From Escherichia phage WPEC4, in sequence record PV682947.1: a stretch of DNA of 64,000 nt; one strand, written 5' to 3'. The notes under the pieces are model-generated. The model saw only the letters and a list, made by a program, of their open reading frames with translations, ran no database searches and was not told the DNA's origin. Both the position numbers and the translations under genes were made by a program. Shown here piece after piece: positions 15,259 to 17,555 of this stretch (position 1 is its first letter; each line of letters begins with the position of its first letter).

Positions 15259-16218
15259 TTAGATTCCAATGATAGTTGCTGCTCGTTTATCCTTGGATCT
15301 GGTGTTTGCTCTACTACGTGACAAACCGCCGCAAGATTCACAACGAATGATATCGAAAGAACTTACCGCAGTGTGGTATTGTTTACCAGTAACAACGTGA
15401 ACGTGATCACTGCCACAACGAGAACAACGGACCTTCTCATCTGGGTAATAAGCGGATAAGTTAGGATGCTGTGGAATCCACGGAAGGATTTTCATATACA
15501 AATCACGGAGTGAAACAACATCACCATCATTGTAAATCTGCATACGTTCAAAAGCATCACGATCACCTTCACAACATGCTTTCCATAAAGGGAACCCCTC
15601 GTTATCCAGTTTTTCACTTTCTGTTTCGAAATATGCTCCCATTTCTTTAAGGGAGTTGGAAGGAAGTGCAAATTGTTTCTTAGCTGCCTTCAATGTATCA
15701 ACAACTACATAATTAGAAGGAGGAGCCATATCGTGATATGCAAATCGTTGGTTAATGTATGCACGGTCAAACTTATATCCGTTGTGTGCCACAACTACAT
15801 CTGCCTCATTCAGAAGGTTCCAAAGATCTTGGCAAAGCTCCCAATCATCTGTATGATCAATATCAAAAAGAGGATAAGAAGACAAGTTCTTACCTTCCAC
15901 TTCACCAGTATACAGGTCAGCAGAAGAGTAAGATAACAAATAACCCCTACGAATTACTTGATCTGGAGAAATGAAGGCTTTGAATCGACGGAAAGTATAT
16001 GCAATCTCTGGTGCAGTTTCAACATCAATAATTTTAATAACTGGTTGTTTCTTTTTAACTGGTTCTTGTTTACTTGCTCCAAATCGTGCAAGGAAATCGT
16101 TCACTGTGCTTTTTCTTGTTGGACTACCTAAAACAATTGCTGCAATATTACGAGAAGACATACCCTCTGCACTCATACTAAGGATATCTGCTTTCTGCTC
16201 TTCTGTTAATCTGCTCAC
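15259..16218 (-). CDS. DnaQ-like 3'-5' exonuclease with N-terminal HTH and C-terminal zinc finger
   Basis: Exo motifs IIDVETAP, VVAHNGYKFD, YNDGDV; C-terminal CSRCG...CESCG. Confidence 0.6.
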   Translation of the reverse strand: MSRLTEEQKADILSMSAEGMSSRNIAAIVLGSPTRKSTVNDFLARFGASKQEPVKKKQPVIKIIDVETAPEIAYTFRRFKAFISPDQVIRRGYLLSYSSADLYTGEVEGKNLSSYPLFDIDHTDDWELCQDLWNLLNEADVVVAHNGYKFDRAYINQRFAYHDMAPPSNYVVVDTLKAAKKQFALPSNSLKEMGAYFETESEKLDNEGFPLWKACCEGDRDAFERMQIYNDGDVVSLRDLYMKILPWIPQHPNLSAYYPDEKVRCSRCGSDHVHVVTGKQYHTAVSSFDIIRCESCGGLSRSRANTRSKDKRAATIIGI

Positions 16219-17333
16219 TCTGCCTCCTGTTGTGAGATGTATGACTGAAGCATACTCTCAAATGTTGTATCGTCATTATCCCAGCGTTTCATGTATACCA
16301 ACTGGAAAATTGTTTCTATCCATTCATCTGTTGTCATATGGACTTCTTCTCCATCCCAAGAAGTAAAATTAACACCATCTGGGAACCACGAGTAGTAAGT
16401 ATCTTTAACTGTTTGGAAAAGTTCTGCTTGAGTTTTACAAGCTGAAAGAAGATTAAAACAAGTAATATCTCCGAACTTAATATCAAAATCTTGATAAGGT
16501 CGGATACTATCTGTTTTATCTCCCATTAGCATCTGATATGCTAACCAGTAACTGCCCCAACCTTTAACTTCTTTCTTTTTACCTTTATCTACGATCCATA
16601 TATCGCCAATAGACTCGTCAATAAGAATTATATCTGGATTTTTAAATACTCCATCCTCTTTGTAGAAATTAAAAAGGATACTAGGAGTATGTAAACTATC
16701 TTTATCTATAGACACTACGATATAAGAAAATTTACCCGTCCTTTTATAATCTTTATAACCTTGGAAACCATACTTCTCTAACTCATCATCAGCTTCTATT
16801 ACAGTAACAACATCACCATTGTGGAACTCCACAAGATAATCTTTGGTTTCTGAAAGCTGAAGTGGTTTGATATCTAATCGTTCAGATTTATATTCTACAG
16901 GCATTTTGAAGGCGTGTCTGAAAGTTTTTCCTACGCCAATAACTCCGCAATATTTTTCTAAACGTAGATGTTTTAGAATACCTAAGACTTTTGTTTTAGC
17001 TGCTTGGAAGGTGTGTCCGATATCTTCTGGCGGGTATTGCTTATCAATGATTTCGAACTCTTCCTTTGTGAAGGGACGTTTGTTTTTGGAGGCTCTTTCT
17101 GCATTTGTATCTCCTAGCCAACCTCCAATTTTAGTCTTGCTTTTACCCCAAAACTCTGTCTTATTTTTAAATTCCTTTTGAGCACCTGAAGGGATGTGCT
17201 TCGCAATGATTGTTCTTTTCTCTAATGCAGACGCTGCTTGGAAAGCGATCTGATCATAATCAATTGCAGCTATTGTTTCTTCGTTGACATATAAATGAAG
17301 ATCTTCAGGTTTAATTAAAATATAACCGCTAAT
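16215..17333 (-). CDS. FEN-family 5'-3' exonuclease / RNase H (no canonical start codon)
   Basis: Frame open from 17345 to ATG at 16904 with no ATG/GTG/TTG; upstream part carries IAAIDYDQIAF and GKTFR...YKSER; downstream EADD, SIDKD, GDKTDSI; ATT start after GGGGG assumed. Confidence 0.6.
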   Translation of the reverse strand: MSGYILIKPEDLHLYVNEETIAAIDYDQIAFQAASALEKRTIIAKHIPSGAQKEFKNKTEFWGKSKTKIGGWLGDTNAERASKNKRPFTKEEFEIIDKQYPPEDIGHTFQAAKTKVLGILKHLRLEKYCGVIGVGKTFRHAFKMPVEYKSERLDIKPLQLSETKDYLVEFHNGDVVTVIEADDELEKYGFQGYKDYKRTGKFSYIVVSIDKDSLHTPSILFNFYKEDGVFKNPDIILIDESIGDIWIVDKGKKKEVKGWGSYWLAYQMLMGDKTDSIRPYQDFDIKFGDITCFNLLSACKTQAELFQTVKDTYYSWFPDGVNFTSWDGEEVHMTTDEWIETIFQLVYMKRWDNDDTTFESMLQSYISQQEAE

Positions 17334-17345
17334 ATTTCCCCCTAA

Positions 17346-17555
17346 TTATTCATCGTCATCCTCTGTTGAGAATGTTTTAGTATACGGACATTGACGACTT
17401 TTCGGGATTGCTATAACTTCATCTTGGTTAGCGTTAGAATAGTAGCAATATTTTGTATTGCCATTAACTTCAGAATCAGACAAGATTAAAGTAATTTGAC
17501 CTGCTGCTACTGTGAAACTAAAAGCTAAAAGAACGACTGTCAGAATCTTTTTCAT
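17346..17555 (-). CDS. small secreted protein (signal peptide)
   Basis: 69 aa, MKKILTVVLLAFSFTVAAG; its TAA stop is in frame with the FEN reading frame. Confidence 0.4.
   Translation of the reverse strand: MKKILTVVLLAFSFTVAAGQITLILSDSEVNGNTKYCYYSNANQDEVIAIPKSRQCPYTKTFSTEDDDE

Follow-up and report, generated by a model that had tools for sequence, protein, structure and literature searches.

For E. coli, the non-canonical start codons of two genes, infC and pcnB, are cited as confirmed (bioRxiv 10.1101/063800). [quoted passage not shown] The infC gene, which encodes IF3, likewise starts at AUU, a codon of the class that IF3 discriminates against, and its start is subject to IF3 autoregulation. 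AUA, AUC, AUU and CUG have been grouped as near-cognates that initiate at 1–2% of the AUG level in E. coli, and initiation at AUC was found by mass spectrometry to yield an N-terminal Met (Hecht et al., bioRxiv 10.1101/063800). In Streptomyces, sigR is reported to have a GTC start that is repressed by IF3 and serves as a regulatory gene-dosage device (PMC5472188).

Here, we analyzed a stretch of 64,000 nucleotides from Escherichia phage WPEC4 (PV682947.1), referred to below as the window. Sequence comparison indicates that the minus strand of the window very probably encodes, at 16215..17333, a 372-residue nuclease of the FEN/5'-3' exonuclease family that is translated from a near-cognate AUU at 17333–17331. 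The gene would thereby join the known class of near-cognate-start genes to which pcnB and infC belong. Like pcnB, it encodes a nucleic-acid enzyme for which an AUU behind an SD appears to be the only possible start. By comparison with pcnB, the gene belongs to a phage, the trait is clade-wide and rotates among AUU, AUC, AUA and CUG, and the start is deduced from sequence. As in infC, the putative start belongs to the codon class discriminated against by IF3, and expression of the nuclease should therefore be IF3-sensitive; unlike in infC, there is no sign of a feedback loop, and the product is not a translation factor. The resemblance to sigR would lie in the use of a non-canonical start as a dosage device, whereas the codon class and the organism differ, and the regulation, demonstrated for sigR, is hypothesized for the phage gene.

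Minus-strand translation of 16215–17600 confirmed an observation of the first-pass annotation, namely that the frame of ORF 16215..16904 stays open for 147 further codons upstream that contain no ATG, GTG or TTG. A 69-aa ORF (17346..17555, minus strand), whose product carries an N-terminal hydrophobic signal-like segment, ends at a TAA (17348–17346) and is followed in the same frame by 376 open codons, of which codon 148 (16904–16902) is the earliest ATG, GTG or TTG. The proposed coding sequence begins at the ATT (17331..17333), 12 nt after this TAA, and comprises 372 codons and a TGA stop. In a six-frame scan of the window, among the frames running for at least 150 codons from stop to stop, no second one had an equally long start-less leader, the runner-up being a leader of 99 codons on the minus strand (33414–33986). 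On the promoter side of the small ORF, a consensus scan revealed a promoter-like TTGACT-17-TATTAT element (17623–17595), followed by a hairpin and a T-run (17594–17571), together spanning 17571..17623 on the minus strand; their function is putative. On the other side, the nuclease stop TGA (16217–16215) is overlapped by the GTG start (16218–16216) of a DnaQ-like exonuclease gene (15259..16218, minus strand) annotated as 'DNA polymerase exonuclease subunit', and a terminator-like hairpin found by sequence scan (15235..15253, minus strand) marks the end of this three-gene unit.

The long start-less leader bears the marks of coding sequence. Against relatives of 70–86% identity, codons 2–147 show a pN of 0.16–0.26 at a saturated pS of 0.7–0.8, and the codon periodicity sets in right after the proposed start, with variable sites in codons 2–21 distributed 9/3/19 and 8/3/17 over the three codon positions. 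D25 is invariant and D27 is at least 90% conserved in alignments of 10 and 37 sequences; both residues (codons for D25-Y26-D27 at 17253..17261, minus strand) close the predicted strand E16–25 of the structure model. Together with R139, these two residues precede codon 148, so that no canonical in-frame start lies before the essential residues. These observations bear on the reading adopted in more than 60 GenBank records, in which a 229-aa protein initiated at the ATG at 16904 would be the sole product and the 147 upstream codons an untranslated remnant of a pseudogenized N-terminal domain. The upstream codons are, however, under strong purifying selection, and the 229-aa fragment would be missing D25, D27 and R139 along with the opening strands of the fold. 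Moreover, the ATG at 16904 has no SD-like sequence upstream, and the first canonical codon in the relatives falls anywhere from codon 17 to codon 146. We thus find this reading hardly credible and regard the ATG (16902..16904, minus strand) as that of an internal Met144, wrongly taken as the start in most GenBank records.

The motifs singled out in the first-pass annotation (IAAIDYDQIAF, GKTFRHAFKMPVEYKSER, EADD, SIDKD and GDKTDSI) were all found in the translation. The predicted structure displays the FEN/5'-3' exonuclease (PIN-like) alpha/beta fold of T5 exonuclease, T4 RNase H, ExoIX and FEN-1. Eight acidic residues, which are candidate metal ligands, are invariant (D25, E180, D182, D183, D210, D212, D272 and D275). 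A weak HMM alignment (E 0.63) places them against the EADD, DKD and GDxxDN of Taq, and a Gly occupies the position of Taq Asp67. In a Pfam search, the window protein gave no match to PF02739 (5_3_exonuc_N), with zero matches up to E 1, and searches of PDB sequences by phmmer and with two profiles returned no significant match. It does match PHROG 107 'exonuclease' (9.9e-56), and 12 of the 37 aligned relatives match PF02739, with a best E of 1.7e-6. Because direct sequence identification failed, the family assignment rests on the fold search and on the relatives that match PF02739. By comparison with the T5 D15 flap endonuclease, T4 RNase H and E. coli ExoIX, the window protein is about 100 residues longer and has insertions, has no Pfam or PDB sequence match of its own, carries Gly in place of Taq Asp67 and has the extra, nearly invariant D27. 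For the window protein, 5' nuclease activity is predicted.

The ATT at 17333–17331 lies four nucleotides past a GGGGG (17342–17338), exactly where the first-pass annotation had placed it; the SD as a whole reads AGGGGG (17338..17343, minus strand) and corresponds to GGAGG in relatives. A spacing of 4 nt is at the short end of the optimal range in E. coli, and it is the commonest GGAGG-to-start distance in the window (18/43). A GGAGG-based scan of the window for other genes with near-cognate starts yielded raw candidate sites only. We compared 24 relatives of 50–100% amino acid identity, comprising metagenomic contigs and cultured isolates (among them KP13-26, FKP3, phiWec181/190, Tr1 and PaulScherrer). 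The codon homologous to the proposed start is ATT, ATC, ATA or CTG in all 24 and canonical in none, and in every one it stands 4–5 nt past GGAGG or GGGGG; the SD is fixed, while the spacer is free to vary. A neighbor-joining tree shows that the identity of the near-cognate differs between sister lineages. At the aligned position, sister clades carry canonical starts, namely ATG (PBES 02), GTG (Iguana-like) and TTG (rV5-like), and their N-termini (MGYP.. and MSREYPLI..) align with (ATT)SGYILI of the window. The aligned codon of one sister-clade contig, L041, is neither canonical nor near-cognate, and the distant relatives L051 and L052 have an in-frame ATG 9 codons downstream, without an SD, which could be the start there. 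In four relatives (L015, L026, L027 and L029), a TAA stands in frame immediately 5' of the ATC. The sister-clade alignment, the 24 relatives and these in-frame stops support the start at 17331–17333 that the earlier annotation had preferred.

Degenerate-pattern scans of IMG/VR for ATG versions of the start recovered no contigs beyond the set already collected. The lack of canonical starts is suggestive only, because about 5–7 codon switches are seen in the sequences, and the absence of ATG among so few is not statistically decisive. Within the first eight codons, the window and its close relatives contain further ATT, ATA or ATC codons, and initiation could in principle occur at one of these, such as the ATT of Ile6 or Ile8. 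We consider this very unlikely: the candidate codons are at least 13 nt from the SD, the SKFETIS/TEEFKTIS lineages do not conserve them, the first ATT is the codon to which the canonical sister-clade starts align, and in codons 2–5 the amino acids are already conserved and the variation is mostly at third positions.

Readthrough of the upstream TAA and a sequence error, both raised in the first-pass annotation, were rejected. In the window, the two ORFs share a frame with one TAA between them, and a 444-aa database protein (P0005) looks like a fusion of the kind that readthrough or frameshifting would produce. P0005 is, however, not a genuine fusion but an artefact, because its DNA shows TAG where the protein shows Gln, the gene caller having read TAG as Gln. 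The relatives do not conserve the frame relation, nor do they keep a single leaky stop: the upstream ORF is in another frame in ECGD1, L012, L011, phiWec181 and Tr1, owing to a 4-nt difference in the spacer, and two in-frame stops are present in L015–L017, L026, L027 and L029. In addition, the upstream gene of L051 is unrelated, and the N-terminus of the upstream product resembles a signal peptide. Given the unconserved frame relation and the tandem stops, a fusion is extremely unlikely. The idea that a canonical start was lost by a sequencing or assembly error, or is supplied by a spliced intron, has nothing in its favor beyond the oddity of the gene itself, and its chance of being correct is negligible. 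A total of 63 phage genomes, independent of one another and ≥95% identical, share the feature, and the architecture recurs in diverged isolates and metagenomes, which excludes a sequence error; an Rfam scan of 16100–17700 gave sub-threshold chance matches alone and no sign of an intron.

In the preferred reading, the AUU at 17333–17331 would be read by initiator fMet-tRNA, with the good SD at the phage's usual 4-nt spacing driving initiation. Ribosomes that terminate on the small upstream ORF, 12 nt away, may assist. A refinement that is possible, if rather unlikely, is that initiation at the AUU proceeds mainly or only by termination–reinitiation after the 69-aa ORF, such that nuclease output would be tied to its translation instead of depending on de novo binding of the 30S subunit. 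Besides the short distance in the window, most relatives have the same neighbor with a stop that overlaps or abuts the SD (TAGGAGG), this overlap is kept in L051 even though the upstream gene there is a methyltransferase, and the nuclease stop itself overlaps the GTG of the next gene. Reinitiation in E. coli is IF3-sensitive and is aided by an SD (PMC2268962). On the other hand, an SD of this strength suffices for de novo initiation, and the upstream stop of L033 and L044 is about 18 nt away. Occlusion by local RNA structure, the usual cause of obligatory coupling, is also not seen at this site, as the fold of –67..+43 around the start is no better than that of shuffled sequences (z-score 0.29).

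Since AUU, AUC, AUA and CUG initiate at about 1–2% of the AUG level, initiation at AUU would hold nuclease synthesis low. We hypothesize that low expression is a selected trait, in that selection would keep the start weak across the Stephanstirmvirinae-type clade, where the four near-cognates interchange and ATG, GTG or TTG has never been fixed. It is also conceivable, but improbable, that the near-cognate start acts as a regulatory switch or as a translational timer of a replication/repair nuclease, by which nuclease synthesis would rise only once infection loosens the initiation fidelity of the host. Possible routes would be a reduced availability of IF3, obligatory coupling with the upstream 69-aa ORF, or help from an initiator-like tRNA-Met of the phage. 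The window does contain an initiator-like tRNA-Met (29915–29993) with a 1:72 mismatch, annotated as tRNA-fMet in PaulScherrer; similar tRNAs are present in many unrelated phages, and no link to the AUU start is established. As readers of AUU as a start, the phage tRNA-Ile(GAU) and the tRNA 'Met' #1 were rejected, both being normally paired at the acceptor end and devoid of initiator features, as was the tRNA 'Met' #2, which, despite its 1:72 mismatch, carries a CAU anticodon and lacks a GGG:CCC stem. Literature searches for these phages returned no proteomic or ribosome-profiling data.

The first-pass annotation had predicted that automated pipelines would reduce the gene to its C-terminal 229 aa, and such truncation is indeed what the databases contain: WPEC2, phAPEC8 and iGC_PHA_EC001 annotate 16215..16904 alone, and the 229-aa form is recorded from 385 contigs. 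None of the 10 clade annotation tables (phAPEC8, WPEC2, iGC_PHA_EC001, ECGD1, PaulScherrer, KP13-26, FKP3, phiWec181, phiWec190 and Tr1) follows the ATT start. The truncated C-terminal fragment appears in all inspected records but one, probably because the gene begins at a rare, weak ATT. Several records place spurious small ORFs in the gap left by the truncated gene, and one pipeline picked genetic code 15 to span it. By comparison, the record of ESCO13 (YP_009786567.1 / AQM50955.1) carries the identical 372-aa protein with the same ATT start and a ribosome-binding-site feature; unlike the present analysis, it is a bare annotation without comment, and the genome announcement is silent on the ATT start (PMC5374246).

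For the phages concerned, these findings mean that more than 100 genomes deposited for Phapecoctavirus, Justusliebigvirus and relatives, types common in therapy-oriented collections, carry a flap-nuclease gene truncated to a form predicted to be catalytically dead, and the truncation will recur with gene callers limited to ATG, GTG and TTG. For the biology of initiation, the locus would represent a natural case, replicated in evolution, of an E. coli phage that uses near-cognate initiation; the four codons found are exactly those ranked just under the canonical starts in reporter assays, and the sister clades, which start at ATG, GTG or TTG, serve as built-in controls. As confirmed E. coli cases are cited for infC and pcnB alone, this clade would lend itself well to studying why selection favors weak starts and what roles IF3 and translational coupling may play.

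The region 16000-17800 matches 64 phage records (megablast), all from phAPEC8-like myophages (Phapecoctavirus, Stephanstirmvirinae); 63 match over the full length at at least 95% identity, and Escherichia phage WPEC2 matches at 100%. The nuclease gene lies on the minus strand, surrounded by an RdgC-like gene, a 69-aa ORF (17346..17555) and a DnaQ-like exonuclease gene (15259..16218). Single-frame translation of 17600..16215 passes from the 69-aa ORF through its TAA (17348-17346) into 376 open codons, in which the ATG at 16904 (Met144) is the earliest in-frame ATG, GTG or TTG, in agreement with the first-pass annotation, which had described a frame open for 147 codons upstream of this ATG without a canonical start. 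Among the window's stop-to-stop frames of 150 codons or more, no second start-less leader reaches this length, the runner-up having 99 codons (33414-33986, minus strand). At the beginning of the open stretch lie GGGGG (17342-17338) and ATT (17333-17331). Farther upstream, the segment 17571-17623 (minus strand) holds a near-consensus promoter-like site (TTGACT-17-TATTAT, with TG upstream) and, immediately after it, a terminator-like hairpin and T-run; the promoter's transcript would start within the left arm of the hairpin and thus escape termination, and the hairpin would putatively halt read-in from the rdgC gene. The nuclease stop TGA shares GTGA (16215-16218, minus strand) with the GTG start of the DnaQ-like gene, whose start is placed 14 codons later in some records (918 vs 960 nt).

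Homology covers the upstream codons as well. When the 376 residues are compared with 50,697 phage records (tblastn), 1,212 match, 900 of them over at least 80% of the query, and the alignments to rV5-like, PBES 02-like, Iguana-like, PAK_P5-like and ICP1 exonucleases span residue 1-5 to about 370, as expected if the first 147 codons belong to the nuclease. The Vibrio phage ICP1 homologue gp176 (locus L009), at 519 aa, extends beyond the family core by about 60 residues at the N-terminus and about 90 at the C-terminus. Aligning 10 and 37 family members shows D25, R139, Y148 and K149 to be invariant and D27 to be at least 90% conserved; all five residues precede or flank Met144. Against relatives at 70-86% identity, codons 2-147 show pN of 0.16-0.26 with pS saturated at 0.7-0.8, and pN is 0.09-0.21 in the first 30 codons. 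These comparisons show that the 147 codons ahead of Met144 are translated sequence of one protein together with the annotated C-terminal part. The rival reading, a 229-aa product from Met144, is disfavoured: it would lack invariant residues and core strands, and its ATG has no Shine-Dalgarno (SD) sequence. No in-frame ATG, GTG or TTG occurs at 16905-17330 (minus strand); summed over 19 clade members, which are not independent sequences, these codons occur at 2.0 per 100 in the N-terminal 142 codons vs 4.5 per 100 C-terminally, a scarcity that may stem from selection against internal starts where the true start is weak, or just from amino-acid composition.

Sequence methods alone do not place the family: the window protein has no Pfam match, and neither it nor two profiles found anything significant among PDB sequences. 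The gene product is predicted to be a FEN-fold nuclease of a divergent branch carrying insertions, because the AlphaFold2 model (37-sequence alignment; pLDDT 94.7, pTM 0.88) is confident across its full length with residues 5-25 structured, a Foldseek search supports a FEN-type fold, the protein matches PHROG 107 'exonuclease' (1e-55), and 12 of 37 aligned relatives match PF02739 (5'-3' exonuclease N-terminal domain). As proposed at first pass, FR..YK, EADD, DKD and GDxxDN line up with Taq polymerase in an HMM comparison, although the alignment is weak. Unlike Taq, the family has Gly (VIGVGKTFR; residues 130-136 of the window protein, 16920-16940, minus strand) where Pol I-type 5' nucleases carry their second metal-binding Asp (Taq Asp67, 'vvfDA'), and a nearly invariant extra Asp lies two residues past the first (D25-x-D27), which may represent a variant active-site arrangement.

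We compared the start region in 24 sequences at 50-100% identity to the window protein, a few identical around the start, drawn from GenBank isolates, IMG/VR, metagenome contigs and contigs encoding database proteins (L numbers denote such loci). All 24 share one layout, in which GGAGG or GGGGG (the latter in the window, L011 and phiWec181) is followed by a freely variable 4-5 nt spacer, a near-cognate codon and a conserved peptide ((S)GYILI.., SGFI.., SKFETIS.., TEEFKTIS.. or THKFNTIS..). The codon is ATT in the window, Justusliebigvirus (ECGD1, PaulScherrer, L012), Tr1, L033/L044 and L051; ATC in L011, phiWec181/190, L013, L015, L025-L029, L032, KP13-26 and FKP3; ATA in L016, L030, L031 and L052; and CTG in L017, whereas ATG, GTG or TTG occurs there in none of the 24. 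In L015, L026, L027 and L029 an in-frame TAA abuts the ATC on its 5' side, and the frame therefore cannot open farther upstream. Variable sites in codons 2-21 are distributed 9/3/19 and 8/3/17 by codon position, so coding periodicity begins immediately past the near-cognate codon. By comparison, the aligned position is canonical in the sister clades, with ATG in PBES 02-like (MGYP..), GTG in Iguana-like (MGYPYD..) and TTG in rV5-like (MSREYPLI..) phages. A 4-nt SD spacing is the commonest before canonical starts in the window (18/43 with GGAGG) and is also found in the 69-aa and DnaQ-like genes. Neighbour-joining sister pairs differ in their near-cognate (window ATT/L011 ATC, L051 ATT/L052 ATA, L016 ATA/L017 CTG, L015 ATC/L031 ATA, L012 ATT/L030 ATA), and the codon has therefore changed repeatedly, never to a canonical one, in the sampled lineages. 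Two loci show further arrangements. In L041 (Ga0256410_1000091, about 641-760), a sister-clade relative at 41% identity, GTT TTA follows AGGAGGA where the Iguana-like GTG aligns, and the frame stays open for 20 more codons upstream, to a TTG. In L033/L044, just upstream of position 701, an other-frame ATG abuts GGAGG (GGAGGATGTT ATT) and begins an ORF of 17 codons that extends across the start of the nuclease gene.

The shared layout and the alignment with sister-clade starts support translation beginning at ATT 17333-17331, the start favoured at first pass, probably by initiation at AUU of the kind known from pcnB and infC. Its two fallbacks fail. Readthrough of the TAA is excluded by a 4-nt difference in spacer length that puts the upstream ORF out of frame in ECGD1/L012, L011/phiWec181 and Tr1, by two tandem in-frame stops in L015-L017, L026, L027 and L029, and by an unrelated methyltransferase as the upstream gene in L051. 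The sole apparent fusion in databases, P0005 (444 aa; Logan SRR30397360 contig, L053, 601-1935; cluster of 48 member sequences), is a gene-caller artefact: a Gln of the protein corresponds to TAG in the contig DNA, and the small ORF and nuclease were joined because the caller used genetic code 15, in which this stop is read as Gln. An ORF without a start codon can drive pipelines to a wrong genetic code. Sequence error is ruled out by the number of independent genomes. An intron or structured RNA was also rejected, with no Rfam family above threshold in 16100-17700 and unremarkable RNA folding at the start (z 0.29). The upstream stop lies 12 nt from the ATT in the window, while most relatives have it within the SD itself (TAGGAGG). 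Ribosomes terminating there may contribute a share of AUU initiation; that initiation works mainly or only by such coupling we regard as rather unlikely, and this would refine rather than compete with initiation at the ATT.

Hecht et al. (bioRxiv 10.1101/063800) measured initiation from all 64 codons in E. coli and ranked them in groups, and the four codons at the phage start position (ATT, ATC, ATA, CTG) are precisely their near-cognate group, which initiates at 1-2% of AUG, with all remaining codons below it. An AUC start gave N-terminal Met by mass spectrometry, and infC and pcnB, both AUU, are the only confirmed non-canonical E. coli starts (bioRxiv 10.1101/063800); the mechanism class is already established. 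IF3 suppresses near-cognate starts and also modulates reinitiation (PMC2268962). The window encodes two 'Met' (CAU) tRNAs. In that at 29915-29993 (plus strand), an A1xC72 mismatch tops the acceptor stem, the D stem has 5 bp, the T-loop reads TTCAAAT, and the anticodon stem is without the three G:C pairs found in initiator tRNAs; this tRNA is kept in Phapecoctavirus and Justusliebigvirus, is labelled tRNA-fMet in PaulScherrer, and has counterparts in Erwinia, Caulobacter and Aeromonas phages. The other (28068-28142, plus strand; acceptor stem GGCCC..GGGCC) presumably resembles E. coli ileX, and may therefore be a lysidine-modified tRNA-Ile2 that reads AUA, not a Met tRNA.

The predicted truncation by automated annotation is seen in phAPEC8, WPEC2 and iGC_PHA_EC001, where the 229-aa C-terminal piece alone is annotated and two of the three records put spurious small ORFs into the gap; the 229-aa form is on record from 385 contigs. 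Two small ORFs (40 and 30 aa; 16982-17104 and 17114-17206, minus strand) that phAPEC8 and/or WPEC2 list as 'hypothetical proteins' run out of frame within the true N-terminal coding region and almost certainly represent filler. Besides Met144, starts are annotated at an internal GTG (ECGD1, PaulScherrer) and at an internal TTG (phiWec181/190). Escherichia phage ESCO13 (NC_047770 / KX552041) carries a 372-aa 'putative exonuclease', identical to the window's, from the same ATT with an RBS feature; the ATT start is absent from its genome announcement (PMC5374246), and our literature searches found no discussion of near-cognate starts in these phages. To our knowledge, an apparently weak start conserved across a phage subfamily is new, as are its rotation among all four near-cognates and its replacement in the sister clades by canonical, though often weak (GTG, TTG), starts. 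The start-codon finding has clear practical use in annotation, and the near-cognate clade with its sister clades would make a good natural model of start-codon selection.
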